Below are positions 456 through 58,417 of a DNA stretch of 64,000 nucleotides, piece by piece. A program made the position numbers and the translations under genes. The stretch comes from Amphiscolops sp. MND2022 (taxonomy: Eukaryota), in contig OZ076409.1 of assembly GCA_964187785.1 (NCBI GenBank), positions 16,122,001 through 16,186,000 on the forward strand, given 5' to 3'. The notes below the pieces were generated by a model, which ran no database searches, was not told where the DNA came from, and was given only the letters and a program-made list of their open reading frames with translations. Position 1 is the stretch's first letter; the number at the start of each line of letters is the position of its first letter.

Positions 456-492
456 GTGACTTTGGAACTAAACTCAATCGACAATAGAAGAG

Positions 493-29100: not shown

Positions 29101-30832
29101 TCGAAGTTTTTGTCATGCTACTACTAAGCGAACCATAAAAAGCTGAACGGAAACTTTTCTTTGAGCTCTCAAAGTTTCAAATATTTGTCAACAAATATAT
29201 CAAAACAACACTCAATATTGCACTTCAGCTTGTAAGTCATCCAAAATGACACCTTTTCTCCGAAGGAAATAAATTTTCCCATCAAAAGTGTGAACGAAAG
29301 ACATCTAGACCTTTTCCGAAGATTCGTCTTATTCTTTGGTAAAATGTTGATTACGTAATGAGGAGATGACTGACAAAGAAAGTGAACTATTTTCGGTGTC
29401 TCGTTACCAATATTACAATTTTGAATATTTTGTGAGTTCCGTTTTTTGGTTCACCTAGTGATAGCTTGATCGGAATTCACACTGAGCTGCTAATTCTGTT
29501 TCTTAGCCGAGATTAATTTAGAAATGCTTAAAATTGCGTTAACAAGATTCTTTTTATCGACAAAGATTTAACGATAATCGAAAACAACAAGATTACCGGA
29601 AAAAAATCAAAACCAAGGCGACAGACAACACAGAATTTACCCAACATGGAGACGTGGATTTATTTTACTTCAATGGACACCAAAAATACAAGCAGTTTAG
29701 CGGGAACTCCAACAATTTCGTTCTCAACTTGTTGGAAAAAGTAGAAATAATAATCTCTAGAACCATCAATCAAAATATACCAATGAATTAAAGCAGTACA
29801 GCACAAGACTTAAGCGTTGGTAAGACAGGTCAACGCACTTAATGTTTCAATGGAACATCGCTGAAAACTATCTGAAGTCCCTAATTATCGAAGTAGACAA
29901 AATGACACTGCAAGAAACCTACGAAAGACGAAGGGTAAGTATGGAACATATCAACGGAACATCTCGAAATTAAGTTGTAATCGCGGAACGCTGAGCTGAA
30001 AGGGAACACACCAACCAAGTAGTAGCTAGACTGCGCGAAAAATGTCAAAAAACCAAACGCCAACGAGGCAATATTCAAGAGAACAATTTGGTTCAACTGT
30101 AGGCAATCTGTGAACCCTTACATATTTTCAGAGAAAGACAAAAAAGCCTAGAAAGTGTCACATGGTTCATGCGATCGATATGACCTCTACCGCGGTTCAG
30201 TCAGACAACACTTGCTAGTTGTTGGTATACAAGAAGAAAGTAAAGATATAAAACCTATAACATTTTATGTTCGTTGGGTTTAGATTTTAGATACAAAGCT
30301 GCAATACTAATTTTAGAATTATTTCTGTTTTGTGAGAATACAACTCTCAGCGTCTGTTGGGATAAAGTAATAAATTGACCCAACCCGAAAATTGAGCGAA
30401 AGTAAGACAAATTTGCGAGGACTAATCTGAGTACCGAAAAGACTCGATAAAAGAGGGAAAGAAGAAATCCTCGCGAACAACAATCTTCTACGATAGTAGA
30501 ATAGGACGTGATAAAACTTAGGGGCTTTGAATTAAGTTTTCTTTTATTCATCATTGGGCTCATTTAGAGTGGTTCAGATTGATTGATAAGTCTAAAGTAT
30601 CAATAGCAAAAGCGAAGAAAAAGAAAAGATATACCATCCCGATCAATCTGGGTCTATCCGTTTGTATTTAAAGGAAATCTTTTGACAACTGTTGTTAATT
30701 TCAACCTAATGGTTTGAATGAGGTAAAACGTCAGATGAAGTTTGCATTCGATAACAGTTCGTCAGTTTTCGTTTTCAAAGTTTTCATGCCAAAAACGAAA
30801 TCGAAAGTGGGTGATTTCAGGCTTTCTGTTGA

Positions 30833-31186
30833 AGTAGTAGGAGAAATCCCGATTCGGGCCAACAAAACTCCAAAAATGAAAAGTCCCCAAAACCATTGAT
30901 TTTAAGCACTTTTTAGAAAACAGATCATTAAAATCAGGGGTTTTTCGATTCGGGCCAACCAACAAAAATTTCAAAAGCCTGCAAAGCTTCGCCAATACCC
31001 CCCTTAGAGACGGTGTTCCATACATTCTTCCAAAAACAAATCAGCGCGATAGCTACCGCAGCTTTGCACAAAATTGGCGTTTTTTACCATGAAGCATGAG
31101 ATTCTAACCTCTATGCTAAAACCAATGCAACGCTGGCTTCGCAATGCATTTTCTAATGCAATGTAAGAGCAATGCAATGTAAAAGC
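30833..31186 (+). repeat. Polinton left TIR (~354 bp)
   Basis: Near-identical reverse complement of 45409-45840. Confidence 0.95.
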
Positions 31187-31198
31187 GTCCAAGTAGAA

Positions 31199-31281
31199 CC
31201 AACGTTAATGTACAACCAACGTTAATGTACGGCCAACGTTAATTTACAGCCAACGTTAATGTACAACCAACGTTAATGTAC
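31199..31281 (+). repeat. 17-bp tandem repeat x5 next to the left TIR
   Basis: Unit CCAACGTTAATGTAC(A/G)(A/G). Confidence 0.95.
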
Positions 31282-31380
31282 CGGACTGTGTGCGTAGCTT
31301 CGCGTAATGCAAAATGAATTTCTACCATGCAAAATTCACTTCCGTTCGGAATTAATACAAGTAAAACTAACATTGATTCG

Positions 31381-31640
31381 TCTCCTATAGCTTAGTGGTT
31401 ATAGCATTGACTAAAGTTAAGGCTTCGGCCGGAGTGTTTGGGGTTCACTTCTAACCAACGTCCCCCTGTCTTTGTTATACCTTACATGCTATGGGAGAAC
31501 AATCACCAATGGCACAGTTCTTAAAAAGGATAATCCCTGCTGTGGAAACTCTTAGTGGAACGGACTCCCGATGGGCTTTGAGTTTACCATAGGCATGTCA
31601 ATGCGCGAAGCTGCGGGCATGCCTATGGGTTTTGTATTTT
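31381..31640 (+). ncRNA. Candidate structured, Pol III-type small RNA of the Polinton
   Basis: A-box TAGCTTAGTGG at +8; 11-bp closing stem 31381-31391/31488-31498; C(TTCG)G tetraloop; perfect 11-bp hairpin 31587-31628 followed by T runs. Confidence 0.4.
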
Positions 31641-31661
31641 TCAACTTTTTCATCTTAGTAA

Positions 31662-32465
31662 ATGTATGAAACTCCGTCTCTTCATAAGTTTGGTTATTCT
31701 AGTGAACAGCTAAAACTGAGGGAATATCAGGAGCTAAAAGATATGTTAAAAAGTCAAGAAAAATTAGCCCAAATAACCCATTCCAAATTAAAAGAAGATT
31801 TGCAACGCGAATTTGAAAATGACATAGAAAATCAAGTAGAAGAAAAAATGCTAGACGCGAAGCTGCACCAAACACTAGACCCACAGGAAGTTCAAAATGT
31901 TTTATTAAACACAAAGTTAATGAACGATATTTGTTCCCAGTTTTCAGACCTTTCAAAAACCATAAATAAGTTAGAACAAAGTATGAAAAAATCTTTCGCC
32001 GAACAAAGAACTGCTTTAGTAAATGAGGTACTAAATTTGATACACAACAATAGTTTTGAAATGTTAACACTCCGTAACCTAAAGTTTATGTCAACTCCGG
32101 GTCAAGCTGGAATGATTTTAAATGAAGATGAAATGTATAAACCTTTTAATGGTCTGCACGAGAATAAAATTACTATAACTAAAAACATAATTCAACTACT
32201 TTATGATAAAGGGTTATTTGATTCTTTTCCCAATAAAGATCAAGCATTTGAACAATACCTCACTTTCAGTGAAACCTATATAAAGGAAAAGTATGGAAAA
32301 ATAATACCTACTTCAGATGGTGAATATTACCTGTCTGATTTAGAATTTTCTGCCAGACAATCAATTCTGGAGTCATTGAAAAAAGATTCCTATAAAGACC
32401 TTGTTGATATGAAACATAGAATGAAATTAACACCAATGGAAATAAAATTCATTTTATATGATTAA
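31662..32465 (+). CDS. Polinton hypothetical protein (267 aa, N-terminal coiled coil)
   Basis: Intact ORF with TAAATG start; no recognisable family. Confidence 0.75.
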   Translation: MYETPSLHKFGYSSEQLKLREYQELKDMLKSQEKLAQITHSKLKEDLQREFENDIENQVEEKMLDAKLHQTLDPQEVQNVLLNTKLMNDICSQFSDLSKTINKLEQSMKKSFAEQRTALVNEVLNLIHNNSFEMLTLRNLKFMSTPGQAGMILNEDEMYKPFNGLHENKITITKNIIQLLYDKGLFDSFPNKDQAFEQYLTFSETYIKEKYGKIIPTSDGEYYLSDLEFSARQSILESLKKDSYKDLVDMKHRMKLTPMEIKFILYD

Positions 32466-32477
32466 TATGATTAATAA

Positions 32478-33170
32478 ATGGAACAAAAACTCTATCCCCC
32501 AACAGCTTCACTAATGACCCCCTCCGCACCATATGATGTAGAATCAATGATAAATAAGCAATTGCAAAACGAATTACAAAAAGTAAATAGTTTCAATAAT
32601 TCTATTCAAAACATTAGTCTAATGATGAAATATTATGAATTGGAAGAAAATAAATATAAGAAAAAATACACCAAATACAAGCTAATAAATAACCTAATTA
32701 ACTCCCTCGATGGCATTATAGTGATTGGAACAACTTCAGCATCCGTTACACTAAGTATTACTGGTGTGGGCATGATAGTTGTTCCAATCACTGCAGGAGT
32801 TGGTTGTGCAACTGGTATTCTTGTTAAAATTTGTTCCAGTTATTTGAAGAAAAAAGAGCAAAATTATAAACTTAAGTACGCTCTTATTCAGAAGACACTT
32901 GATGACTTTAGACAACTTTATATCACTAGCCTAAAAGATAATCATATAGATGAAAAAGAATACCAACGATTTGTGACTCAATTTGAAAATTATCGCGTAG
33001 CTTCGCACACAGCTTCACAGGCAGCTTCTCGTGCGACAGCTAACACCAGTTCACAAATTCAAGTAACAAACAAGCGTGATAACATGCGTGATAACAGGCG
33101 TGATAACTTGCGTGAAAACATACGTGATACACCAAAACCAAACAGTTTTTTTATTCAATTTGAACATTAA
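32478..33170 (+). CDS. Polinton membrane-active protein (adintovirus GasderminX-like)
   Basis: Lys-rich helix, hydrophobic Gly-rich hairpin (SVTLSITGVGMIVVPITAGVGCATGILV), then SLKDNHIDEKEY; family assigned from memory. Confidence 0.65.
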   Translation: MEQKLYPPTASLMTPSAPYDVESMINKQLQNELQKVNSFNNSIQNISLMMKYYELEENKYKKKYTKYKLINNLINSLDGIIVIGTTSASVTLSITGVGMIVVPITAGVGCATGILVKICSSYLKKKEQNYKLKYALIQKTLDDFRQLYITSLKDNHIDEKEYQRFVTQFENYRVASHTASQAASRATANTSSQIQVTNKRDNMRDNRRDNLRENIRDTPKPNSFFIQFEH

Positions 33171-33287
33171 TTTGAACATGAATTTTAACATAAAAAAGTA
33201 AAACTTAAACCATAAAATTAAATGAAAAATAACTCCAATTTTAAAGAAATATAAATGCTATTGAATTAATTTTTTTATAATAAAAGA

Positions 33288-36200
33288 ATGGACAACTGTA
33301 GTATTTGCAATTCTGATTATAAAAAAGCTTTCAAGTCTGATCATCTAAAAACAGTAAAACATTTACAAAAATTAAATCAATATTCTTGAAAAAAATGTAA
33401 TACTTTTATGCCATTGTCTGACAAGTCTAGACATCTAAATTCAGATGAACATAAAAACAAAACCAAACAACAACACATTTGGTGTGAAGATTTTGGTAAA
33501 TATATAAGTAATTCAAGACATTTCCAAAGTGAAATTCACACGTTAAGAAGTCAAAACCACCAAATTAATAAAATGCGCGAAGCGTGCCAGCTTTCGCCTT
33601 CAGTACGCAGTCTGGTGTAGACATAATTGTGAATGAAAAAACATACATTAAACTGAGAGTAAATCCAACAAATCATCTTGAAGAACAGATTAATGATTTA
33701 CTAAATAAAAATTACTTTCCCCGATACAAGTTCCAATTGAGTTATTTAGCTAAGTTTTCGAAATATGGTGAAGAAGAAGAAGTTGTATTTCACAAATGGG
33801 TTAAATCAGATTTAAATTACAATCACACAAACCTAAATGTTCATAATTCATTAATGCAGAAATTAGATGATGAACAATTAGAAGGATCAGGTTTTGTGTT
33901 AAACGGTATTGTCAATGTTATATAGAAATATATAAAGTCAATGATATTCAAGCTTCTTCGTGGGTTGAGTAGCCAATAAAATATAAGAATATTAAATCAA
34001 TTATAAATATAAAAAATGATCAATTTTGTTTTCTATGGTGCGTCCTAGCACACCTTTTTCCCGTTGAGGATCATAAAAATAGAACATCAAGTTATTCAAT
34101 GCGCACAAACAAACTCATTTTAAATGGTTTAGAATTCCCCTCGAACGTTAAAGATATTCCCAAGTTTGAAAACTTAGATAATTTAAACGTAAATGTTTTT
34201 GAACTCACAAATAGTGTGCTAACACCAATTCATTTTAATAAAGATTACTTACAACCACAAATTGACTTGCTGCTATTTGAAAATCATAATTGCGTAATAA
34301 CAAAGTTGCATTGCCTACTAAAAAAAGATTCACACATGAAATGGGTGTGTAGAAGTTGTCTAACAGCATTTAGTTCTGAGGATATTCTCAATCAACACAT
34401 TGACCGTTGTCAAAAACAGCAACCAACTAATATCACATTCAGTTGGAAGGATCATTTAAAGTTCGAAGATTATCATATAAAAGTTCCCGTACCAATAAGA
34501 GTATATGCAGATTTCGAATGTATTAATCAACCCGCAGAGCTTCGCACAGATATCCCCAAAGGTGACCGCAAAGCTGCGCCCAAAGTATTATATAAACAAA
34601 TTCCAATTGCAGTAGGATTTTATCTAATTTCACCATTTGGCAATAATAACAGCTCATACTTTGGAGTATATTGTGTAACATGGTTTGTGAATGAAATGTT
34701 GACTTTAGAAGAATTGGCATCGGAATATTTCGAAACTAATATTCCTCTTGAAATAACCCCCGAAGAAGAAGAATCATTTCAACAATCCAAAGTGTGTTGG
34801 ATGTGTGAGAATCCACTCGGTGATGGCGAAGCTACGCGCGAAGCTACGCAAAAAGTTAGAGACCACGATCTTCTTACAGGCAAGTACCGAGGAGCAGCTC
34901 ACAACAAATGCAATCGAAATTGTAAACAAAAGTCAAGTTTGTTTGTTCCCATATTTTTCCACAATTTTAGTGGTTATGATTGCCACCTAATTTTTGAAGA
35001 ACTCTTAACACAAGCTTACAAAATGGGGTGTGAACCAAAAATTATCCCAAAGTCAATGGAAGTCTATATAAGTGTGCAAGTAGGTTGTTTAAGGTTTTTG
35101 GACTCATACCGTTTTCTAAATAGTAGTTTGGACAAACTAATGAAGAGTATGCAAAGCGGTGCAAATAATTTTCCCATCATGACACTAGAAGGGATGAGTG
35201 ATGAATTATTTAAAAAGAAATTGGCTTATCCTTATGAATACTTTACACACAATAATTTTCAAGAACCATTAAATCTAAGTCCACAAGACTTTTGGTCAAC
35301 ACTAAAACAAACAACTCCAAGTCTTGAAGAAATTAACCGAACACAATAAATTATTAAAAAGTTTAACGTAAAGAACGGACAAGAATTAACGGAATTGTAC
35401 CTCAAAATGGATTATCTACAATTAGCTGAATTATTCGAAAACTTTTTCGAGAAGGCTACACTTGAATACAACATTAATCCTTTGTACTCCTTTTCTCTAC
35501 CTGGGTATACATGGAAAGCTGGTTTAAAACCTACTATCATTAAATTAGATTTCATAAAAGATAAAGACCTACTATTACTACTTGAAAATAATATTCGTGG
35601 AGGAATTTCAAGTGTAATGGGACCTCGTTACATTGAGTCAGACACCAACACTAAATTACTGTACATTGATGCAAATAATCTTTATGGATGGGCAATGAGT
35701 CAATACCTTCCTACTGGAGACTTTAAAAAGATGCGGAGCTTCGCAAAGTTCGGTTGTGACAATGATGAATTACTTATAGATGAAATTAAAGAAGACATTT
35801 TGAATACACCAGATGACTGTGCTTATGGATACTTTATAGAATGTGATTTAGAAAATCCAGCAGAAATTAAAGAAAAAACTGAAAACTTTCCACTTTGTCC
35901 TTATCAAACAAAAGCAGATCCAGACTTATCCTCAGGTTATATGAACAGTGTAAAACAACCCAACTACAAACCAACCAAGAAACTTTTGTGTGACCTAACA
36001 AACAAATATAATTATATGATGCACTACAGGATGTTCAAGTTTTACACGAATTTGGGGATGAAAGTAACACACATTCGTACAATCTACAGATTCAAACAAT
36101 CACTTTGGTTAGAAAAATACATTAATCATAACACACAAAAACGCACCAAAGCAAAAACAAACTTCGAAAAAGATCTGTACAAATTGATGAACAACGCTTT

Positions 36201-37119
36201 CTTTGGTAGGACTATGGAAAATGTAAGAGAAAGAGTTAACTTAGAGATTATCCCCCACACCAATATTGATCAAATAATTAAAAGACAATCCAAGTTAAGC
36301 TTTAAAGGTATTGTAAATCATTACTCCGAATTCAGCGTTTATGAATATGAAAAAGAAAAGACAGTCTTTGATAAACCAATTTACTTGGGATTCTCTGTTT
36401 TAGAACTGAGTAAATTGTTAATATATGAGTTTTATTGTCACAAATTACAACCATACCACAGTTCGAGTGTCAAACTGCATTACATGGATACAGACTCATT
36501 CATTCTAAGTATTAAAACTGGAGACCTTATAAATGATTTGGAATACTTCAAAGATGATTTTGATTTCAGCGAGCTCGACGAAAATCATGAGTTGTATGAT
36601 ACTATTAACAAGAAAGTTATAGATAAAATGAAAATAGAAACATCACCAATTATTGAATTAGACAACTTCGTAGCTTTGAGATCTAAATCATATTCTTTTA
36701 GTTACAAAAATGCGCAAAATACAGTTCAGAAGTCAAAACAAAAAGGAATACAAAATACACCACCCTACACACAGTTTTTAAATTCATTATTTAATTCTGA
36801 AACGACAACTGCAACTAATTATTCTATCCGTTCGGATGCTCACAGTTTAACTGTTCAGAAACAAAACAACCTAGCTTTGAATTCTTTTGGTGACAAGCGT
36901 GTGTACTTAAATCCAATACAAAGTTTATCATGGGATAAACACGTACAAAGTGGTGATTGTCCTTGTATATATTGTTTGAAATTAGTGAGTTTGTATTATA
37001 AAGAATTAAATGATGGATTGAGTGATGAAGAAATATACTATAACATTTGGACTCTGAAACAAAAATTGAATCATCAACAGCTTTTAAATCTGATAATTGA
37101 TCGGGCACATCTTTTATAA
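33288..37119 (+). pseudogene. Protein-primed family B DNA polymerase (pPolB), disrupted
   Basis: Exo YADFE, FHNFSGYD, YLKMD; Pol YIDANNLYG, KLMNNAFFG, YMDTDSF; endonuclease VII-like RDHD..TGKYRGAAHNKCN; lesions at ~33387, ~33600, ~33925, ~33970 and 35347. Confidence 0.93.
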
Positions 37120-37277
37120 TTATAATTTGTGTGAAATCAATATTTAGATACTTTATTATTATCATCATTTCATAAAAGGATAGTCTTAAAAATTTATCAT
37201 TTTATAGAAAGACAGTATTATAAATATCATCATTATTTTATAAATTTATTATTACATTCAGTATTATAAAATGAGTA

Positions 37278-38530
37278 TTATAGAAGGTCAAAATGCCTTT
37301 GTCCATCACTACTAATACTTATTAGTTTTGGGGTTAGAACTAGTGCATAAGCTATATAGTCTGCTACATCAATGGCAGCACTAAATTTAAATTCTAAACG
37401 GATTGGTTGACTGGCAATATGATCTTTTTGTTTGGATAGGTCAAATATATAAAAATTATAATTTGTTCTGAAGTTGTGCAAATCAATAAATGGATTGAGT
37501 AAGTTAGTTTCAGTTTTTAACTGTTAAAAGTTTTCAATTTCACTGTATGCTTGATCATATTTGTCGCAGTGGTAGTCACATTCTATTCCATCATCGGGAT
37601 ATTTTTCTGATCCTATTTTACAAACAGCATTTGAAATCGGAAGTCTATCAAACACTGCATTATCATGTGTTTGTGAATCAAGTTTATTTCTAGCTTGAAA
37701 TCCGACAATAACGAATGTTGGTGTCGATTGCGCAGCTTCACCACCCGAGTTACCTAATTCAAATGTCCATGAATTATTCGTGTTAACATCTTTTCTAAAG
37801 ACTGTACGTTTGGTATAAAACAACTCGGTTGGATCTTCATTCAGGAGCTGATCCATGACAAGTTGTTGGTTTTCTAAGCTAGGAACATAGTGTGGAAAGT
37901 ACCAAGAAATGTCTTTAATATCTATTTTTGCAGCATCCACCCCATTCCCCCTGAAAATCGCGTCATTGTTGTTGTTACGTTTTAGAGTTAAGGTATAGCC
38001 CAACCCATAAGTTATTTTTTCTTGATCAGCAGATCCAAACAAGTCTTTTAGTTTTATTCTCACAAAAAAGGTTCCTTTCTCATTTTTGTTGTTTGTTAGT
38101 TCTTGTCTTCTGATGGTAGTACTTTCATCAAACCCATACAATAACTGGGAAGTTTGACCACCACTTGTCAAAAGTTTATACATTAAACTAATTGGGTGCA
38201 AGTTGTCAACTTTTTCCAGGTGTTTACCCGAACTTGTAGTTAATTTGGCTTCACTAAACAAAGCAACGGGCCCAAAATTAACCAAGCCTATTTCATCGTT
38301 GTTGGCATATCTTGTATTATTGTTTTTAAGTACTTCAATTTCTAGACTAATGTATGATTTTGTAAACATATGTATGCATCTTCTCTTGGCAAACTGATAC
38401 TTACATTCGAGTTTGCGTTATTGATTGTCGCTAAACTACTGGGACTATATTTTATAAAATCAATTTTATGAATAGGTTTCTCAAGAGTGTATTTATTTTT
38501 CAAAGAAAACATTGTATCATTGAAAATCAT
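37278..38530 (-). pseudogene. Polinton major capsid protein (double jelly-roll), disrupted
   Basis: Three ORF pieces (frameshift ~38355, in-frame stop at 37524); PTFVIVGFQ, NAVCKIGSEKYP, FYIFDLSKQ typical of Polinton MCP. Confidence 0.85.
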
Positions 38531-38554
38531 TTATAATAAAAAATTTTTGGAAAA

Positions 38555-39454
38555 TTACTCCATTTTGAAGAAAACATTCATACTTTCTAACGTTTTGTTG
38601 TTAGAGTCAAAGTTGAATATGCTTCTTAAAAGTTCTTGTTCATTGTATTTTCCTTGATTAATTTCTCCGTTTTCATCATTTAGAGTGTATGTTACAGTGT
38701 TCGTTGAATTAATGCTGTGTATTTTGAAAAGTTCTCTATTCCAATTTGTTGTATAACCTTTTGAATAAATGTTTCGTTTGTCAGGAACTCTTACAAATTC
38801 TCCCACTTGGAAATTGGCGAAGCTGCGGTAGCTATCGCGCGGAATTTTTTTGTTATTATTAATTTTATTGCTAGGAAGTAAACTGTTATTACTGGCTTCA
38901 ATTGGTGTCATTTTTGTTGTACCATGCACCCTATTATTATACTTATCCAAAGCATTATTAGTGTGATTCAACCAGTTACCTTTACCTTCAATGTACATTG
39001 GTTCTTTAATTAAGTCCAGAAGTGTTCTATTGAAACGTTCAACAAAAACAGCCTTCAAATCTGAATTAGTTGACTAAATTTGAATGTTTTGCTCTTTTAA
39101 ATAGTGTAAAAATGTTGTGTTGTAAAACTCTTTACCTCTATCCGACCAAATTTTATGAGGTTTTCTTTTACTAGTTTCCAATAAATTCTTGAATGCAGCA
39201 GTTGTACTTTTTCCTGATTTATCTTTGAGAGGAATCGCCCATGCATATTTGGTATGATTGTCAATTATTGTGAAAATAAACCTGTAGTTTTTGTTGTTTT
39301 TGCTTAAGCTTGAGCGATCAATTAAATCGATACTCCAACACTCATCTTTATAGTGAGTTTGTATTTGAATTCTTTGAAACTTTTTGATTACAGGAGAGAA
39401 TATTTCTTTAGCAATCTGCTCTTTGCGAAGCTCCGCCTTTTGATTCATGTTCAT
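38555..39454 (-). pseudogene. Retroviral-like (rve) integrase with one in-frame stop
   Basis: DDE motifs WSIDLID, IWSDRGKEF, VERFNRT; C-terminal FQVGEFVR...KGYTTNW; TAG at 39074-39076. Confidence 0.93.
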
Positions 39455-39477
39455 TTATAACAATTTTTTATAAATAA

Positions 39478-39660
39478 ATGAATAATGAATATAGCTTGAA
39501 AGATGATGGCGAGAGCTGGCACAGGGCCTCCGGGCAAAGCTGCGCCAAGGCCGCCAACAAACTGCACTGGTTTCAGAAAACACGAATCTATAAAGTAATC
39601 ACAAATCCAATGTTTATTGTATGTTTAATTTTATTTATATGTATTGTTGTTGCAATATAG
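39478..39660 (+). CDS. Small membrane protein (60 aa), possibly a frameshifted N-terminus of ATPase 1
   Basis: TAAATG start; C-terminal hydrophobic MFIVCLILFICIVVAI; overlaps the ATPase ORF in another frame. Confidence 0.55.
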   Translation: MNNEYSLKDDGESWHRASGQSCAKAANKLHWFQKTRIYKVITNPMFIVCLILFICIVVAI

Positions 39661-40651
39661 GAATTATATTCGCCCTAGACAGTTTAAAACAATTTATAAA
39701 AAACTACTACAATTTGCAGGGTTCAAATACTCTCATCTGACAAACCAGGAAATTAAAGAATCCCGTTTTGATATGGGATTGGGACTTCCCAAAGATGCGC
39801 ATAGCAACTCTCATTTCATAATCTATGGCAGTAGTGGCTCTGGGAAGACATCTTTTTTAAAGCATTATTTAGCACACACTCCACGCACTTACGTAGTTTT
39901 CGGGCGAGATATACGTGAGTTTCCCTCTCAAAATTTTGTACCTTTACTGCAGTTGGAGAATGTTAGTATTGAACAACTTGCTAATAAGATTGTTATACTG
40001 GATGATGCAGGTGCATACAAAAGTCTCAAAACAAAAGTAGAAGACTTATTTAGATATGGTAGACATCACCAGATTCAAGTAATTTATCTCGCTCACTATG
40101 CAAAGGATGTTCTTCCAATCGTGAGGGAAAACTGTCACAAAATATTTCTAACAATTAATAACCCAGATAACTTCTTCGAGTCAATTGTACAAACTTATGC
40201 TATATCTCCCGCAGTTAAGGACGGGCTTAATTGGAAATACTACCGGGATCAGTTAGAATATGGCATATTTGAATTTGACACAAGGTGTCAGAAGTACAAG
40301 GTATTAAACAACAAATACATAATAATTTATGATTCTAGTAAACAGAATAAGTGGGGCCCAGAACAACTCGTTGCTTATGAATGTTACTTTTTCACTGGTG
40401 ATGAATACAACAGATTGAAAATATTTTTAGAGGAAATGTCCGACCAGACAATTGAAACAACACCACTCAACATAGCTTATTATTATGTAGCCTATTGCAA
40501 ACAAAAGAATATTAAAGTGAATGAATCCAAAATAGACAACTACGTTGAGCGTATGCAACAACCACTAATTAGTGACTCAGTTAAAGAGGACTTCAAGAAA
40601 ATTATATATGATCATGCAAAAATTTTTACTAAAAATAAACTGAGTAATTAA
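39644..40651 (+). CDS. A32/FtsK-like packaging ATPase 1 (start uncertain; first ATG at 39773)
   Basis: Walker A GSSGSGKT, Walker B IVILDD, RYGRH motif, VREN. Confidence 0.88.
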   Translation: MLLQYRNYIRPRQFKTIYKKLLQFAGFKYSHLTNQEIKESRFDMGLGLPKDAHSNSHFIIYGSSGSGKTSFLKHYLAHTPRTYVVFGRDIREFPSQNFVPLLQLENVSIEQLANKIVILDDAGAYKSLKTKVEDLFRYGRHHQIQVIYLAHYAKDVLPIVRENCHKIFLTINNPDNFFESIVQTYAISPAVKDGLNWKYYRDQLEYGIFEFDTRCQKYKVLNNKYIIIYDSSKQNKWGPEQLVAYECYFFTGDEYNRLKIFLEEMSDQTIETTPLNIAYYYVAYCKQKNIKVNESKIDNYVERMQQPLISDSVKEDFKKIIYDHAKIFTKNKLSN

Positions 40652-40695
40652 CAAGAAATTAGCGAGAAATTAACAACAAATTAACGAAAAAAATG

Positions 40696-40955
40696 TAGTG
40701 ATTCTTAGAGGAATTTAGTGATTCTTAGTGATGAAATTCTTAGTGATTCTTAGTGATTCTTAGTGATTTTTAGAGATTCAATAATTTCTCTAAGAATTAA
40801 TAAGAGACCCCTTCTTAGAGAAATTTAGAGAAGTTAGTGATTCTTAACACACTTAAAGAGACTTAGTGATTCTTAGAGATTTAACTTTGTGGTTCTTAGT
40901 GATTCTTAGTGATGAGATTCTTGGTGATTCTTAGTGATTCTTAGAGGAATTTAAA
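40696..40955 (+). repeat. 10-bp minisatellite (TTAGTGATTC)n between the two ATPases
   Basis: More than a dozen exact or degenerate units. Confidence 0.9.
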
Positions 40956-40972
40956 GATTTTTCTCTAAATAA

Positions 40973-42021
40973 ATGAAGTGCATAATTTGTAATGAAAGTT
41001 GTGAAAAATCATTATGTGATGATTGCTCTAGTAAAAAAAGATGTAAAGAGTGTAATAAAATGAAGACAGATTCCAATACAAATTTTTATAAGTATAAAAA
41101 CGGTAAAATGTACAGTACATGTATAGAATGTTTTAATAAGAAGGTGAGGTGTGAATTTTGTAATAAGGAATTAAATAAAAGTTATTCAAGGTCACATATC
41201 AAAAAGCAACATGTGCAGCGTCATATGCAGCGCCATGTTCAATATGCTCCGCCACAGCACTTACAGGGCTACGCGCAGGGCTTCCCGCAGAGCTATGCGC
41301 GGGGCTCCGCACAGGGCCATGCACAAGATTATATTAATATTAAAGATTCTTTCAAATGTGCTACCAATGATATCACCAACCCCAATGATGATGATGCGGA
41401 AGCTAACGCTAATGATGTATTACAACATTATAGTACATTATTAGTTGGTCCACCATTTTGTGGTAAAACTCATTTGTTATTAAACAAATTACAATTAATT
41501 CGATTGAGTGATAGTGAAAAACAAATACATATCTTTACGAGAAGTCCTGAACAATATAAAGATGTGGGGATGAAACTGGATGTTTGGGATTTAGTAGTGG
41601 AAGAAGATTTAGGTGATAAAAGTATTCAAGACTTTCAAAATTGTTGTGTTGTGTTTGATGACATGTTAGACTCCAATCAGAATCTAATAGATCCATTTTT
41701 AATAGAGGAAGACACAAGTTGTGATGTTCATTATTTAAGTCAGAGTTACTTTGAGGTACCCAAAAGAATAATCAGAAACAATTCAAATACAATAATCCTA
41801 TTTCAACAAACCTTGTAAGATGTTGAACACATTTAAAGAGATATTGCTGGTTTTGATATGTCTTATGATGAATTCAAAAGTTTGTGTAGAAAGGCATGGA
41901 AAGAAAAATACAACTACTTAATAATAAATAGGTTAGAAGATAAAAATGGGAGTAAACACCAGGTGTGCAATGAATCTAATCCAAATTACATGATCTTCAA
42001 TCCACAAGCGGATCCTTTCTA
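40973..42021 (+). pseudogene. Zinc-finger-fused A32/FtsK-like ATPase 2, disrupted
   Basis: N-terminal CxxC pairs and C2H2; Walker A GPPFCGKT, Walker B VVFDD; RGRH in a shifted frame at ~41704; SQSYF..PKRIIRNN; stops at 41816 and ~41833. Confidence 0.85.
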
Positions 42022-42027
42022 AATAAT

Positions 42028-43206
42028 TCATACATTGCATGCTGTGATAAGGTTGCTCTGCGTGGAACTTCGTATATTTTGGTGTTGAGAAGGTGATATG
42101 CATTCATACTCCAGGAGTTTATCTATAATTGCAACAATTTGTTCATTAATCGGAAAACTATCATTTCCTCCAACTTTTTCAAAATAAAGTAGTTTCAATT
42201 GATCCACTAATTCGTCTGGATCAGATGGGAGGAAGTTGTACTGTTGTGTGGAGCTTCGCGCGTGGCTTCGCGCACACCCCTGCGCAGCTACGCGCAATCC
42301 ACTTCCCAATTGGCTTCCTGATTGGCTTCCCAACTGGTTTCCTTGTGTGTTGTCCATAGAGCTTTGTGGATAGCCATGTGAAGACCCCTGTGTATAGTCC
42401 TGTGGAGGCTCTTGCGAAGCTACGCGCGAAGGCTCCTGCACATAACCCTGTGAATCATGTGCCTGCAATTGATAGCGAGAGTATAATTCTTCAATAAATT
42501 GATATCTGGTTGATTTTTGATCTCCACAATTTAGATCATATTTCATATCATTTAGGAAGTTATAAATTGGGCTCCAGTTATTTATTGGTTTGTCAAATTG
42601 TGTATTAGTTATAAAATATTGAAGATCTGGGTGATTTAAATTGCATGAATTCCCATTCTCGAAAGTCATTGTTGAACCTTTGATTAGTACTTGTTGTGGG
42701 TTATGGGGATTAATTGTGAATAAATTTGCAGAGCTGCGCGCGGAGCTACGCGGATAACCTTCTATGGGTTCTAAACTAAATTGACTTTTGTTTTTGTCAT
42801 TAAGTAAATTAGAAACTGTTTTTACAATACTAGAATCAACCTGGTCGGAATTAACAAGGCTCGTAAGAAGCTGATTGCGAAGCTCCGCATTATGATTTAT
42901 ACTTTCATTATATTGTTTTATTCCTTCTTTAATAGAATTTTGAAGAGTATTATTATTGCGTTCTATTGCTCTTGTCTGATTTTCAAGTGCCTGTGTAACC
43001 CCTTGGGTTTGTTTGTCAATGGCTTGTAGTTGCTTTTCATTTGATTCCACCTGCTTTGTAGTAACAGGTTCAAAAACTTCTTCCATATCGTAATGAAAGT
43101 CTTGCTTCCCTAGTTTCTCTTTTAATCTTTCTTTGCGCAGTAAAGATTTTGTTTCTTGTATTTTTTTTAATTTTTCCAAGTCATCCCGATTATGAATTGA
43201 ATACAT
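42028..43206 (-). CDS. Conserved Polinton hypothetical protein (392 aa)
   Basis: C-terminal LPSDPDELVDQLKLL...GGN...NEQIVAIIDKLLE, a motif I recall from Polinton ORFs; internal 4-aa repeats. Confidence 0.75.
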   Translation of the reverse strand: MYSIHNRDDLEKLKKIQETKSLLRKERLKEKLGKQDFHYDMEEVFEPVTTKQVESNEKQLQAIDKQTQGVTQALENQTRAIERNNNTLQNSIKEGIKQYNESINHNAELRNQLLTSLVNSDQVDSSIVKTVSNLLNDKNKSQFSLEPIEGYPRSSARSSANLFTINPHNPQQVLIKGSTMTFENGNSCNLNHPDLQYFITNTQFDKPINNWSPIYNFLNDMKYDLNCGDQKSTRYQFIEELYSRYQLQAHDSQGYVQEPSRVASQEPPQDYTQGSSHGYPQSSMDNTQGNQLGSQSGSQLGSGLRVAAQGCARSHARSSTQQYNFLPSDPDELVDQLKLLYFEKVGGNDSFPINEQIVAIIDKLLEYECISPSQHQNIRSSTQSNLITACNV

Positions 43207-43232
43207 TTATTGAATTTATTTAATGAATAAAA

Positions 43233-43691
43233 CTAATGGATTTTCCTCAGATACAGGCCTTTACCCCCTTTACTTGCTTTGCCTGCTTTGCTGCCTGCGT
43301 TGCCCGACAAACCTTCAGCTTTGTATAACCCCTTCCCTTGATGTACAAATTTAATGACTTCGGGTGCAGTTGCAGCAATGAGTTTTGGATTTTTACTTGC
43401 TGCTGCAGTTCCAATATTTGCTGCTATTTCCAATGCACGGCCTGGATTATTGAGTATTTTCTTTACGATACTCTTGGCAGCTTTGCGCAAGTTTTTGAAT
43501 AAGTCGTCCAATCCTTCCCCATTTATTGTTCGATCTGATACAATAAGACTTTTATTTCTGCTACACATCATACAGGTGCCCCGTAACTTTTTTACATTAT
43601 TGTTTCTAATATCTCCATGAATATTTGTGGTGGGGGAATAATGTTTTCCACCAACACAATATGAATTATTCATAAGTTTATTATACCTCAT
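43233..43691 (-). CDS. Small basic protein with Cys motif and amphipathic helix (Cupiennin/adenovirus protein VI-like)
   Basis: YC...GTCMMC, then GEGLDDLFKNLRKAAKSIVKKIL; xGxG motifs resembling adenain cleavage sites. Confidence 0.6.
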   Translation of the reverse strand: MRYNKLMNNSYCVGGKHYSPTTNIHGDIRNNNVKKLRGTCMMCSRNKSLIVSDRTINGEGLDDLFKNLRKAAKSIVKKILNNPGRALEIAANIGTAAASKNPKLIAATAPEVIKFVHQGKGLYKAEGLSGNAGSKAGKASKGGKGLYLRKIH

Positions 43692-43730
43692 TTATTATTA
43701 TTAAATCTAAGTTAATTAATTTTAAATTAA

Positions 43731-44737
43731 TTAAATCTCGATAATTTGAATTGTGAAGGTGAGTGTCTCCCCGTTGAAATCAACTGGGTTGTGGTTAGAG
43801 TCCTCAAGGAAAAATTGAATGGTGTCCAGTCGTGTTTTGTTTATCAGCTTGTACAAAACAGTTGTGGGTTCTTTTATAATTTTATATCCGGGAGGTGCGC
43901 TTAAATTGAAAGAAAATAAAATTTGTTCTCGTATACCATTAACATTTGAACCATTTACGCAGTCGCACTTCAGATGAACTTTGTCGGTGGTTGTTATCAT
44001 GACTGGTTTTTCTGAAGTGTGAGTTCCGGATGGGTAATCACGTTGTGTAAAACCCAGGACTTTGTTAAGTTCGGAGTTAAAATGAATAGGGTTTGAGGTT
44101 GTTAAAATTGATTTCATTGATACTGTGTCGGGTATTATGTTGAATTTAAAATCAGAATCAGTAGTTCTTTGTTTTACGGAAGCATTGATACCAACTAATT
44201 CATTTGCTCCTGGTACTAACTGTATTCCAAAGGAATCATGTTCAATTTCAAAGTCAGGATTATGTATTTGTTGATCAGGATAGTTAAAAACTTCAATTAA
44301 TTCCTTGAGTTGGTTAAAGTCTTTTCTAGTAAGTTTTTTTTCTTTTTAATATAACTATTAGTTATAAGTGCATTAGTTTTTTCTATAAATTTATCATCAG
44401 ATGTTTCATACAAGAGATGTATATTTGGCACTAATTCAGTGTCAACTCTATGCTCTTCGAGTTGTTGTTTTGTTAGAAGAATTTCAAGTTTGTTATTCTT
44501 TTCAGTAATGTTATATACAGTGTTGTATACTTCCAAACTTGTTACTCCCATCATCCATTTTTCAGGTAATTCCAATGAAACATCAAATGAGAAAGATTCT
44601 TTTTGCTTAGTCATTTTAAATTCTAGTGTTTCTTGTGATTTAGAATGAGTATTTTCAACAATTTCTTGATTAGATTTTGCAATACTTAAAAGAAGAGATT
44701 CTTTTTTATCATATGTTACGAAGGTTGATAGTTCCAT
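43731..44737 (-). pseudogene. Polinton minor capsid protein (penton), frameshifted at the A-run near 44335
   Basis: GVTSLEVYNTVYNITEKNN, LVPGANEL, VHLKCDCVNGS, ILFSFNLSAPPGYKIIKEP, NPVDFNGE. Confidence 0.85.
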
Positions 44738-44781
44738 TTATTAGAAAAAAATCTTTTTTCTAAGCTGCGTGGAGCTCCGCA

Positions 44782-44970
44782 TTATACTTGAAATTGTTTA
44801 AATCCACTAGCGGAAATGTTATTCAAAAATTCTTGCCTATCTTTTGATAATGTTTTCTTATGTGGCTTTGCTGTATTTTTTCCATGATTTTGATTTTGAT
44901 TGTGAAGCTGTTCTGCGAAGCTGTGCGAGATAATTTTATATTGAGCTGAATAATTATTAATTTTCTTCAT
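44782..44970 (-). CDS. Small Polinton hypothetical protein (62 aa)
   Basis: TAAATG start; lies between the protease and penton genes. Confidence 0.5.
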   Translation of the reverse strand: MKKINNYSAQYKIISHSFAEQLHNQNQNHGKNTAKPHKKTLSKDRQEFLNNISASGFKQFQV

Positions 44971-44977
44971 TTATTAT

Positions 44978-45369
44978 TCATAAATTTTGGTAGTATAAAT
45001 TTAGTACTGCATTTTTGAACCCTAAAATTTGTGTGAGATACAGTGTGTATAAACAATACGCCGCGCAATAACTGTCGTTGGTCTGAATTTGATGTTTTGA
45101 ATAAATACCATTATTAATGTGATTAAGTATATTAGTTGGGGGTGGGCATCCATATGAATCAAAATAATTTTGATTTGTAAACATAACCCAATGTGTTCCT
45201 TTAATTGGATGTAAGTTAACTATACCACTGTAGTGTTAAACTTATCATCTCTCGTGTATATTGCACACGGAATATTTGATTCAGTAAGTATTTTTTTTAT
45301 TTTTTTAGAAGTTGCTTCGTTTTTTAGTCCGTTTTTTTCAACAAATTCTTTGAATGATAAACAATTCAT
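44978..45369 (-). pseudogene. Adenain-like cysteine protease, frameshifted
   Basis: Catalytic motifs GTHWV (His), FDSYG (Asp), IQ...YCAAYCL (Gln, Cys); ATG at 45369. Confidence 0.88.
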
Positions 45370-45408
45370 TTATTAGTTATTTCTCATTGTTATGTGTGAA
45401 TACTCATT

Positions 45409-45840
45409 GCTTTTACATTGCATTGCTCTTACATTGCATTAGAAAATGCATTGCGAAGCCAGCTTTGCATTGTTTTCAGCATAGAGGTTAGAATCTCATG
45501 CTTCATGGTAAAAAACGCCAATTTTGTGCAAAGCTGCGGTAGCTATCGTGCTGATTTGTTTTTGGAAGAATGTATGAAACTCCGTCTCTAAAGGGGGGGT
45601 ATTGGCGAAGCTTTGCAGGCTTTTGAAACTTTTGTTGGTTGGCCCGAATCGAAAAACCCCTGATTTTAATGATCTGTTTTCTAAAAAGTGGATTAAATCA
45701 ATGGTTTTGGGGACTTAGCCCGAATCGAAAAACCCCTGATTTTAATGATCTGTTTTCTAAAAAGTGCTTAAACTCAATGGTTTTGGGGACTTTTCATTTT
45801 TGGAGTTTTGTTGGCCCGAATCGGGATTTCTCCTACTACT
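45409..45840 (-). repeat. Polinton right TIR (~432 bp, includes a ~76-bp tandem duplication)
   Basis: Mirror of the left TIR; 45642-45716 is repeated at 45718-45792. Confidence 0.95.
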
Positions 45841-46244
45841 TGTTGATGCAAAATGTTCTTCACGACTTCCGTTGTTGAAGAACAAATTGAAAGAGATTAC
45901 AGGACGAGAGTCAACTTGTCGAAATTTCCAGGGATGAACCCTCCTAAGAGCAATTTTCCAAACATGAAAATAGCTTTGTTTCACGGAGACAACTTTGTAG
46001 ATTTAAGAAACTAACAAACAACCAGAAAAGAGCATCACTACATCCATTCAAACCATGGATGTAGATGTGGCAGCTAGAGAAGCCAAAAGAGAGCAACAGA
46101 AAACCGAAATTCAGAAAAAAATAACACTTTCAAGCAGACAGTGCCGCGAACGCACGGAATTTGGGATGAAATCCTCACAGACATAAAAAACGGAACACTG
46201 AAAATGATTCAGAACGTTGATGAAACGAAAGCTGACTACGAAAC

Positions 46245-53741: not shown

Positions 53742-55978
53742 TTAGTCTGGTTTATAAAAAACGCATTGAATCGAATATTCAAGTTTAATTTGTGTGAAAA
53801 TTAAGAAACATGATTTTTCAGATACACAAAGGTGTAAATTACACTTCACGCATATAGTTTTGATCTGGCTGGTGCATCCTGGAAGCTTGCACTTTCCTCG
53901 ATTTGAAGCCGTTTTTGGTAAATGGTCGATCCCATCGCGCCTGACTTCTTCAGGTCGAAGGTTTTCAACATTTCCTTTTCGTTTTTTATCGAGAAATTCG
54001 CATTGCACGCTCGAAAACGTTCGACGTTTAGCTAGAACATTTTTTCTGGTTACAGTTTCAGCGATTTCCAGTTTGAAATCCCACAGCGTCACCCAGTCTT
54101 TTTTCGGCAACTCTGTGTCCTCGCACGCTCTTCTATATTCCAGCCAGGAATTTACCACAGCAGCATCTAGGAAGTGGAAGAAAATTTTGAAACAGAACCG
54201 TTTGTTACTTTGGATCCGCGAACGATAAAGGGCGATATAACTGTCGAAAGCGTCGACGCCGCCCATAAAACTGTTGTACTCTCGAACACAAGCAGGTGTT
54301 GATACTTGTATATACTGTCTAGTTTTTCGATCGACTCTTCTAAAGAAACCAATTAGCTCTGCCCCGCAGAAATCGCTCAGAAAGTGAACTGGCCTATTGT
54401 CTACCCCACTGGATCGCTACTATATCATTATCGTTTCCGGGCATTGATGCAGTTTTCACCTGTATTGTACCTCTAATCCACTTTTCTATCTCATTGGAGA
54501 AGGTTAGACCACCAAAGCGGTTGCTACGGTAGGTGCTGAGAGATCTGAACCCTCTCGTATTTAGTTCTTCAATGAGATTGCTACTGGTAAACCAATTATC
54601 GAAAAATAGCTTCAGTTTTTTCCCCTCGCGCAGAACATCAATCAAACGTAAAACAACAGAACCTGCTACCTCAACGCGGGATGAGTTTTCTTTCTTTGCC
54701 TTGATGTAAAATTCAACTTTGTGTATCAGACCTTCTGTTGACGTCAGTGCAAACACCTTGTAGCCCCATTTTTTAGGTTTCTTAGGATTATACTGACATA
54801 ATTTCTGGGACGATTTTTCGGTCTGCATGGGAATTATTTGCTCATCAATTGAAAATCTATCACCAAACGGTAGTTGGCAGGCAACCGAATTGAAGTTGTC
54901 GATGATCGCGGCGAATTTGAAACTTTGCTGTTGTTGTTTCCCGAAAATCGTTGTTGCAAAAGTGCGAGTTGTTTTTGATTGCTTCGAAGTCATTCCGGCT
55001 CATTACATCAGCCACTTGTTTGACATAGATTTTGCTGGATCAAAAATTGCGGATATTCGTAATCCCAAAAAGAGACATGTAAACACTACAGCCCATGAAA
55101 TTTTCAAGTTTCCTGATGTCCAGAGAAAAGGTTGTATTAGGATTTTTCTCTGTACTGTACTGATTGGTCTCTCTACAGATGTAGCCCAACCAGTTTTTGC
55201 TGATATATGGCCTAAAATATACCATCGGCGATTTAACTAATGTCTCAAGTGTTATTACATGCGAACTATCCGAGTCAGAAAAGTCAGGGTCTTTCGTATT
55301 CCAAATTTGCCTGCTCTCTTCGCGAGGAATCAAGTCTGTCAAGGGCTCGTCGTCTTGAGAAGAGTCCGAATCCGTATCCTCTGTGATTTGCCTTTCTTCG
55401 TTGGCTATCGAATTTTCTGAGCCTTCACTGTCATCGGTTATTTCGCTCAATATATATCCTTTATTGGCCTTTTGCCTCAGATCATATTTGAATGCTGCTT
55501 TTTCTACGCGACTTGTTGATCCCGTGACTGGCGTCAGAGTTAAGTCCATATTTATCAAGTCTTCAACCTCAGGAATCTCAGAAAAAAACAAATTCGAAAA
55601 CGTACTTCCTGCTGACTGGCGAAGAATAGTTTCATTGTTTTCAGGAAAGTGGTTCGAAGGAGTAATCGTTTCACTTTCGTTTGGGCTGGAACTGTGAATT
55701 TCTGAATATTCTGATGAAGAACTGTCCGGCGTTTGGTCATTGACGGATGCGTATGCTTCGGCATCGATTATTTGACCAGTATTTGGATTTATCATGTCTT
55801 CTTTGCGTGGACGAATACACGAAGACTTCGTATGAGTGGTCCAGTCGGAATATCCTTCGAGTTTAACTTTGTAGGTCCTGGTAAATTGTTTCAAAATGAT
55901 GGCCGGCCAATAATGAACCCATTTTGTCTCTGGGTCCAGCCAAAGAACGTTCACCCGGTCGCCTATTTCGTAACTCAT
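53742..55978 (-). pseudogene. piggyBac transposase with N-terminal Tudor-like domain, frameshifted
   Basis: FSIDEQ, KPKKWGYK, FFDNWFTS, YNSFMGGVD; Cys-rich C-terminus CKLPGC...CVKCNLHLC. Confidence 0.92.
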
Positions 55979-56031
55979 TTGTTTTCTGAAAAAAAATCGA
56001 ACAGATAATCAATTCTTCAGAGAAATGCAAG

Positions 56032-56213
56032 CAGTTTTCCGTCAAATTTCGGAGTGCAAAGGAAATTGGAGAGTTTTATAATAAATGTTTTGAAGAGAAA
56101 TGAATATGAATAAACCTATGATATCATAGGTTTGTTCATATTCATTTCTCTTCATAACATTTATTATAAAACTCTACAATTTCCTTTGCACTCCGAAATT
56201 TGACGGAAAACTG
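56032..56213. repeat. Spacerless palindrome with 91-bp arms
   Basis: Centre CCTATGAT|ATCATAGG at 56122/56123; 3 mismatches. Confidence 0.97.
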
Positions 56214-58202: not shown

Positions 58203-58417
58203 CCAGCTTGATTTTCATACACTTTCAGTCGGCGCTTCATGAAGTGAAATGCCACTATATATAGTGGCATTTCACTTCATGAAGCGCCGACTGAAAGTGT
58301 ATGAGAATCAAGCTGGATAGAACTTTTTTGGTCAGTTCGTGTGGATTGAAAAAAGAGCAGCTATTATAAAAGCTGCTCTTTTTTCAATCCACACGAACTG
58401 ACCAAAAAAGTTCTATC
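58203..58417. repeat. Two abutting palindromes (57-bp and ~50-bp arms)
   Basis: 58203-58316 centred on CTATA|TATAG; 58316-58417 centred on CAGCTATTATAAAAGCTG. Confidence 0.95.

Follow-up and report, generated by a model that had tools for sequence, protein, structure and literature searches.

The genes of a Polinton/Maverick in the genome of the acoel Amphiscolops sp. MND2022 nearly all begin in TAAATG, and their starts resemble poxvirus late promoters in both elements, the TAAAT initiator and a T at the 10th nucleotide upstream of it with flanking Ts. None of the 12 ORFs of the element matches a multisubunit RNA polymerase, and a poxvirus-late signal in an element without an RNA polymerase of its own suggests that the transcription machinery of a large virus may be borrowed. 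We give about even odds (0.5) to the reading that the signal is an initiator of the poxvirus-late type and that a helper, some large DNA virus, reads it.

The element and its genes

The window, the 64,000-nt stretch of DNA analysed here, contains a decayed 15,008-bp Polinton/Maverick, one of many copies in the acoel genome; the copy number is very high, with 1466 candidates at first look in the host assembly. It has terminal inverted repeats with AGT...ACT ends and a 6-bp target-site duplication, and it encodes a protein-primed B-family DNA polymerase (pPolB; PF03175, E 1e-3, a weak score) and an rve integrase, together with a double jelly-roll (DJR) capsid protein and an A32-like ATPase. The features are as follows.

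30827..30832, + strand: left target-site duplication, 6 bp TGTTGA, identical to the hexamer at 45841-45846
30833..31186, unstranded: left terminal inverted repeat, starting AGTAGT, 95-98% complementary to the right arm
31659..32465, + strand: ORF1, 267 aa, TAAATG at 31659-64; family-A specific, coiled-coil/helical, without family match
32475..33170, + strand: ORF2, 230 aa, two-TM, TAAATG at 32475-80; conserved in relatives
33252..37119, + strand: pPolB with endonuclease VII insert, broken at several places
37278..38533, - strand: DJR major capsid protein (MCP), TAAATG at 38528-33; PF21738, E 1e-11; frameshift near 38350
38555..39457, - strand: rve integrase, TAAATG at 39452-57; PF00665, E 2e-10; broken near 39075
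39475..40651, + strand: TM/A32-like packaging ATPase 1, TAAATG at 39475-80; PF04665, E 3e-8; broken near 39660
40970..42022, + strand: zinc-finger/ATPase 2, TAAATG at 40970-75; premature stop at 41816-18
42028..43209, - strand: 392-aa conserved Polinton protein, function not assigned, TAAATG at 43204-09
43233..43694, - strand: 152-aa basic protein, TAAATG at 43689-94; weak DUF5679 match
43731..44740, - strand: probable penton, broken, TAAATG at 44735-40
44782..44973, - strand: 62-aa ORF, TAAATG at 44968-73; conserved in family A
44978..45372, - strand: presumed adenain-like protease, broken, TAAATG at 45367-72
45409..45840, unstranded: right terminal inverted repeat, closing ACTACT, pairing with the left arm
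45841..45846, + strand: right target-site duplication, 6 bp TGTTGA, matching the left hexamer

The penton and cysteine protease candidates are conserved ORFs with no Pfam or PHROG matches. The first we take to be a penton, following the preliminary description and a resemblance, and the second presumably is a protease, from its H-D-C motifs. The predicted fold of ORF1 (pLDDT 48) has no Atlas matches, and the family-B homologue of ORF2 has a weak SLATT_1 match. The element is probably of the Beta/group-1 type, a placement taken from the weak PF03175 score and not from a tree. Its capsid protein groups with Polinton-like contigs in a tree built without virophage sequences, and the virophage-type major capsid protein of the Virophaviricetes was not found in it. 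Scans of viral contigs with the MCP, as single protein and as alignment, and a phage tblastn search gave nothing. An origin from an algal symbiont was rejected, since the insertion is flanked by target-site duplications about 4 kb from the host gene MED6, and copies are present on all large contigs.

The start signal and its spacing

The preliminary description had placed 11 ATGs in an exact TAAATG, and all 11 were found there. It had also stated that ATPase 1 lacks a clear start of its own, which was wrong: position 39478 is the ATPase 1 start, and in a young copy of the same family (family A) the gene is one intact 419-aa TM+ATPase frame. With 39478 assigned to ATPase 1 the window copy has 12 Polinton genes, and TAAATG opens 11 of them, and 12 of 12 in the young copy. 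Across 23 family-A copies it is kept in 193 of 236 start alignments. TAA precedes 19 of the 536 other ATGs of the element (3.5%), so that the probability of at least 11 in 12 is 1.3e-15; internal TAAATG is not depleted in the coding sequences. Among 80 AT-rich viral control loci, 59 of 596 ORFs of at least 90 aa started in TAAATG, and no locus reached 35% of such starts with three or more of them. Host genes lack the motif, as had been claimed, with 0 of 14 starts (MVK, SETD1, MED6, eight tubulins and three histones; the first three are first-ATG calls, and three regex matches that are not gene starts were left out). This is the opposite of an equally frequent TAA before host ATGs, which had been named as the outcome that would speak against the idea.

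The exception is pPolB, whose ATG at 33288 lies in AGAATG, preceded by a T-run and TAAAA; the TAAATG at 33252-57 nearby opens no more than a short frame in the window copy. The preliminary description was right about AGAATG here, but the early class that it derived from it fails at the family level: among 22 aligned copies the pPolB start is TAAATG in 10 and AGAATG in 7. AGAATG is a subfamily variant, not the mark of a family-wide early class.

Two divergent Polinton families in the same genome (B and C) have the same start signal in other gene orders. Among their loci, TAAATG was found at 14 of 18 ORFs in L058/59 and at 12 of 17 in L056/57. In L058/59 the three complete genes that lack it all have a TAAAT that ends 0-4 nt before the ATG, against 17 of 542 background ATGs, and some genes in families B and C start in TAAAT-ATG or TAAATA-ATG. 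The family-B pPolB has a profile match at E 8.5e-14, and the family-B MCP separates from that of family A in a tree made by a quick method with long branches, which we used only to show that the TAA-type loci are scattered. A TAAATG-type signal recurs in about five more lineages, and other relatives have T-A(3-6)-ATG. Taken together, the starts of the relatives are graded, T-A(2-6)-ATG (AAA 47 and TAA 30 among 113), a series that could equally be read as A-rich start contexts.

A second element lies upstream. Over families A, B and C, T is present at -12, -13 and -14 in 26, 24 and 24 of 33 starts. At -13 the 24 of 33 stand against 22 among 56 TAAATG that do not open a gene (Fisher p=0.004), the starts being not fully independent, since families B and C have some genes in common; in family A alone the figures are 9 of 12 and 6 of 26, and the integrase start lacks this T. 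In vaccinia late promoters the conserved T at the 10th nucleotide upstream of TAAAT corresponds to -13 (PMC11980589; PMC11423596, Table 1). A TATAWAW at the usual distance was found upstream of 1 of 12 starts only. Tandem genes in family A are separated by -4 to 137 nt, and the divergent ATGs of integrase and ATPase 1 are 23 nt apart in the window and 34 nt in the young copy. Judged from these sequence features, the reading of the motif as a promoter or initiator of the poxvirus-late type is better supported than was known when it was first proposed, through the -13 element, the TAAAT-ATG variants, the 23-nt divergent pair and its presence in three families.

Alternative readings

The main rival, to which we give less credence, is a core promoter private to the element that host Pol II reads in the nucleus, with host factors or with a TBP-, TFIIB- or VLTF3-like factor made by the element and acting in cis or trans, and with no helper. 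The poxvirus likeness would then reflect a common origin of Varidnaviria signals, or convergence. The high copy number and the lack of the helper markers VLTF3, D5 and NCLDV capsid in the host assembly agree with this, as does the expression of coral polintovirus genes in both heat-stressed and control colonies, reported in PMC11131425. Families B and C also have an ORF of 160-177 aa whose N-terminus carries a CxxC-x13-CxxC ribbon (Pfam Zn_Ribbon_TF, E 0.028), possibly TFIIB/VLTF3-like, at a level that is not significant. Its low-confidence model (pLDDT 45) finds cowpox VLTF3 at the top in BFVD (E 0.069) and TFIIB/Brf1 chains at the top in PDB (E 0.8-1.4, best 0.78). However, a profile of this ORF against four giant-virus VLTF3s reached a probability of 0.5% only (hhalign), and its matches are confined to the B/C loci, with no such ORF in family A. 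Furthermore, with a T at -3 and with divergent ATGs 23 nt from each other there is hardly any space for scanned Pol II leaders, and the spacing of the -13 T is exactly that of vaccinia.

A translational signal, in which an in-frame stop before the AUG insulates the start or couples termination to re-initiation in an A-rich context, seems improbable. The claim that TAA is not the stop of the neighbouring gene held in the window and in the young family-A copy, but in the unidirectional family B it is the upstream stop in 2 of 14 such starts, and at one junction in family A the neighbours share 4 nt, as this reading would allow. The signal is carried by first and divergent genes too, TAAAT-ATG and TAAATA-ATG keep the pentamer and lose the in-frame stop, TAA is the sole stop used, and the -13 T peak has no translational role. 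That composition or a functionless inherited vestige accounts for the motif is very unlikely: the element is AT-rich (GC about 33%, and about 12% in the -20 to -1 windows), but the background probability and the AT-rich viral controls given above largely refute this, and the motif outlasts altered N-termini and upstream sequences and is also found on family-specific genes. Scarcely credible is that AATAAATG, present at most family-A starts, is the poly(A) signal of the upstream gene packed against the next ATG. It is also found at ORF1, the protease and ATPase 1, which have no upstream co-directional gene, the MCP start reads TATAAATG despite having one, and AATAAA is missing at many family-B starts. 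Two further measures were uninformative. AATAAA is denser in sense coding sequence of family A (3.4/kb, 44 in 13,074 nt) than of the host (0.49/kb, 16 in 32,871 nt), with no depletion against synonymous shuffles in either (z +2.3 and +0.4), so avoidance does not discriminate; no 3' signal lies within 100 nt of 6 of 11 family-A genes, and the same holds within 250 nt for two of the three host genes.

A helper virus and related systems

In the helper reading, each gene has its own promoter of about 20 nt, a T-rich patch centred at -13 and a TAAAT initiator fused to the ATG or immediately upstream of it. Transcription may start in the AAA, with polymerase slippage giving a 5' poly(A) leader as in vaccinia and yeast pGKL, which we infer because a T at -3 allows neither an ordinary leader nor a Kozak context. 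The late machinery that reads these promoters would belong to a large cytoplasmic DNA virus present as a co-infection (Nucleocytoviricota, with a poxvirus relative as the simplest case), and the element would therefore replicate as a virophage-like hyperparasite and persist as integrated copies. Dependence on a helper virus is plausible. In the host assembly no loci were found for VLTF3 (control: 5 of 7 giant-virus bins), NCLDV capsid (control: 5 of 5), D5, VETF-large (also 0 in 5 giant-virus bins) or D13 (a search with no positive control). The large RNA polymerase subunits have only 3 loci each, and the 4 loci of DNA polymerase B and the single one of cap methyltransferase look cellular without exception. 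The missing markers are weak counter-evidence, because a lytic helper need not integrate. A search of IMG/VR with a 16-nt promoter word gave at least 123 matches, and none of the 80 examined lay at an ORF start (at least 90 aa). Against the helper reading counts that an integrated nuclear copy is out of reach of a cytoplasmic polymerase without an extra step, and that the very high copy number fits nuclear transposition. The coral expression, the graded starts of the relatives, the zinc-ribbon ORF of families B and C and the integrase start without the -13 T count on the same side.

The element resembles animal Polintons/Mavericks (Polintoviricetes, "adintoviruses") in its AGT...ACT repeats, 6-bp duplication, pPolB and rve integrase, in its DJR capsid and A32-like ATPase, and probably also in a penton and a protease. 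The searched parts of PMC8502044, PMC10748475, PMC8097293, PMC11131425 and bioRxiv 2026.06.19.733378 say nothing on promoters at gene starts; PMC8097293 goes no further than speculating on activation by giant viruses, and the virophage idea for vertebrate Mavericks is speculation there. With vaccinia and mpox late promoters (PMC11980589, PMC11423596) the signal shares both elements, equal spacing, the ATG within the initiator and TAAATA variants. Unlike there, all genes of the acoel element have the signal, those for polymerase and integrase among them, although it encodes no RNA polymerase. Both the sharing of promoters by virophages and the association of Polinton-like viruses (PLVs) with poxviruses are already in print, the latter being a point on which the preliminary description had advised a literature check: virophages share the promoters of their helpers (PMC10945749), and Maverick-clade PLVs occur in entomopoxvirus occlusion bodies (PMC11296320). 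The mavirus/EMALE provirophages and Gezel-14T (PMC10945749; bioRxiv 2022.07.28.501842) are likewise integrated small DJR viruses with a large virus's promoter word, but they have protist hosts, known helpers and other motifs, whereas the acoel element has an animal host, a Maverick-type capsid and no known helper. Among the entomopoxvirus-associated PLVs, which parasitise a poxvirus in an animal, 2 of 4 have a Maverick-clade capsid; they come from occlusion bodies, and for AHEV_PLV1 and Ca_PLV1 an integrase was looked for without success. The words "promoter", "motif" and "TAAAT" do not occur in the main text of PMC11296320. The yeast cytoplasmic elements pGKL1/2 (PMC6211774) are linear and have pPolB, a TAAAN initiator and 5' poly(A) heads made by slippage, heads that we infer for the acoel element; they differ in having a polymerase of their own and an early-type element upstream, and no capsid or integrase. 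Our literature search found no paper on a TAAATG motif in animal Polintons. New here are the T peak at -12 to -14 matching vaccinia and the same signal in two further families, with the variants TAAAT-ATG and TAAATA-ATG.

Tentatively, many animal Polintons might be provirophages and not transposons transcribed by the host, with lineage-specific start words (TAAATG in the acoel, T-A3-6-ATG elsewhere) that record different helpers; the acoel families would then be parasites of a poxvirus relative yet to be discovered in marine invertebrates, and may be an inherited antiviral reserve. The two-part acoel promoter makes it testable by what route the genes of animal Polintons are expressed and if a giant virus is required as partner. 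Its promoter word is a sequence clue toward a still undescribed large acoel virus, and such words are a possible means of sorting the lineages of Polintons according to their partners. Should Pol II be the reader instead, the signal would be an unusual, near-leaderless promoter class that bears on how the late promoters of NCLDV arose.

The element and its gene starts

The host is an acoel, and the MED6 of the window shares 68% identity with its Symsagittifera roscoffensis counterpart. The element under study belongs to family A:

30833-45840, Polinton/Maverick, 15,008 bp, with AGTAGT...ACTACT ends

Its terminal repeats are 95-98% complementary, the flanking target duplication is TGTTGA, and it encodes pPolB, an rve integrase, a DJR capsid and an A32-like ATPase. 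Two further ORFs, which we take to be the probable penton and protease, had no match in a Pfam search. The majority of the genes in this copy are broken. Searching the 1.07-Gb genome with the capsid DNA gave 1466 first-look candidates, and the 40 that were scored were 85-100% identical. The right TIR holds a tandem duplication, and the first codons of ORF1 are similar to a stretch within the TIR (both: regions 30762-31025 and 45587-45841). Elsewhere in the window, near-perfect palindromes (56032-56213 and 58203-58417; arms 91, 57 and 51 nt) adjoin a transposase-like region (53745-56008), and LTR retrotransposon-like gag and pol frames of 1142 and 1027 codons, presumably of Bel/Pao type, lie at 472-6881.

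The preliminary description had 11 ORFs starting in an exact TAAATG, and every coordinate was correct; TAA precedes 19 of the 536 other ATGs in the element (P=1.3e-15). In a young family-A copy, used solely for fixing start positions, the motif is present at 12/12 starts, and this copy places the start of ATPase 1, earlier said to have no clear one, at 39478. The motif is kept at 193 of the 236 alignable starts in 23 family-A copies. The pPolB gene, set apart before as an early function, has TAAATG in 10 of 22 copies and the AGAATG of the window in 7, which makes the supposed "early exception" a subfamily variant. Host genes do lack the motif, as had been proposed (0/14 starts, three regex matches having been dropped as non-starts), and tubulin and histone starts are A/C-rich. 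Among AT-rich viral controls, 59 of 596 ORFs start in TAAATG. The observation is real, strong and sharper than first described. The histone genes themselves lie in a tandem repeat of 3.63 kb, for which candidates number in the thousands (contigs C67, C4, C33 and others of the host assembly).

A two-part signal in three families

A genome search with distant capsids revealed two divergent families, B and C, whose gene orders differ from that of A. In one family-B copy 14 of the 18 ORFs that reach 70 aa begin with TAAATG; the other four comprise an internal fragment and three ORFs in which TAAAT ends 0-4 nt upstream of the ATG, against a background of 17/542 ATGs overall. Because of these three, the conserved unit, as read from the sequence, is TAAAT rather than a stop adjoining a start. 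T stands at -12, -13 and -14 in 26, 24 and 24 of 33 starts from the three families. At -13 this compares with 22/56 non-start TAAATG (p=0.004; some genes are common to B and C), and in family A only with 6/26, as against 9/12 starts. The protease and integrase starts have no T at -13; the ATGs of the divergent integrase/ATPase 1 pair are 23-34 nt apart. A TATA box at the usual distance lies upstream of 1/12 starts. Vaccinia late promoters, in the parts of the sources available, combine TAAAT(G) with a conserved T at the tenth nucleotide upstream, that is -13 (PMC11980589; PMC11423596, Table 1), and the acoel Polinton starts are alike in both.

TAAAT also adjoins the ATG of HNH/endonuclease-VII genes inserted in family B (L059:650-1282, plus strand). 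Family B further has tandem duplicates of tail-fibre-like and zinc-finger genes, and the B and C loci (L050-L063) share accessory modules and differ in capsid modules, being mosaic Polintons within one genome.

Relatives and earlier reports

Related capsids were taken from 82 loci, 2 viral and the best 80 of 561 metagenome matches, of which 65 gave 113 homology-confirmed starts. Before the ATG, 47 end in AAA, 30 in TAA, 2 in TAAAT variants and 34 otherwise. On a quick tree the TAA loci belong to about five capsid lineages that lie apart from one another, and these loci are not independent since many derive from one sample set. AAA-class starts are mostly T-A(3-6)-ATG, with equally AT-rich DNA upstream. 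At L070, L074, L078, L080, L082, L086, L089, L094 and L102, related Polintons from other samples, this form stands at nearly all genes, and the roughly 20 nt upstream of it are almost devoid of G and C. AT-rich starts are usual in 24 viral contigs with related pPolB, one of which (L369) has TAAATG at 5/5 ORF starts. The start words of the relatives could be lineage-specific helper words, as described for EMALE types in the available part of PMC10945749, or simply A-rich start contexts.

Maverick-clade PLVs accompany entomopoxviruses (PMC11296320); the main text of that paper contains none of "promoter", "motif" and "TAAAT". For vertebrate Mavericks, activation by giant viruses has been speculated (PMC8097293, in part). 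"Promoter" is absent from the accessible portions of PMC8502044 (including section 3.1), PMC10748475, PMC11131425 and bioRxiv 2024.03.23.586382, 2026.06.19.733378 and 2026.10.13.758929. The novelty of the motif had been left to a literature check: searches for TAAATG or TAAAT with polinton, maverick, adintovirus or polintovirus gave no report, though a prior mention may exist, because supplements and most subscription journals lay outside the search.

The polymerase behind the probable promoters

The motif very probably acts as a promoter. In the best reading, to which we give a probability of about 0.5, every gene would have its own short late-type promoter, and initiation within the AAA would be followed by slippage, leaving a poly(A) head on the transcript. 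Such initiation and slippage have been shown for vaccinia and, with TAAAN, for the yeast pGKL elements (PMC6211774, in the part available). The element has no polymerase of its own for this, and therefore a co-infecting large DNA virus would supply it. The sequence anatomy is observed directly, and we infer the initiation site, the helper and any benefit.

Virophage-like dependence on a giant virus, as first proposed, fared unevenly. Searches of the host assembly for VLTF3, NCLDV capsid (controls worked) and D5 gave no match, and RNA polymerase subunits were found at three loci each; the helper is kept as a reading with an even chance of being right. That no helper gene was found in the assembly also speaks for transcription by Pol II, as do the very high copy number and the expression of polintovirus genes in control coral colonies (PMC11131425, in part). 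Families B and C moreover encode an ORF of 160-177 aa, with an N-terminal CxxC-x13-CxxC zinc ribbon and two helical repeats:

L055:7548-8075, plus strand, zinc-ribbon ORF
L059:7307-7819, plus strand, zinc-ribbon ORF
L062:2863-3210, minus strand, zinc-ribbon ORF

A poor model ranked VLTF3 and TFIIB/Brf1 highest for it, as weak, non-significant leads; the ORF failed a profile test against four VLTF3s, and family A lacks it. On these grounds we retain Pol II as a possible but rather doubtful explanation. Tests based on poly(A) signals did not discriminate.

Under the helper-virus reading, a specifically poxvirus-like helper with an antiviral benefit to the host is less probable than a helper as such. 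Promoter sharing is already known from virophages and Gezel-14T (bioRxiv 2022.07.28.501842, in the part available).
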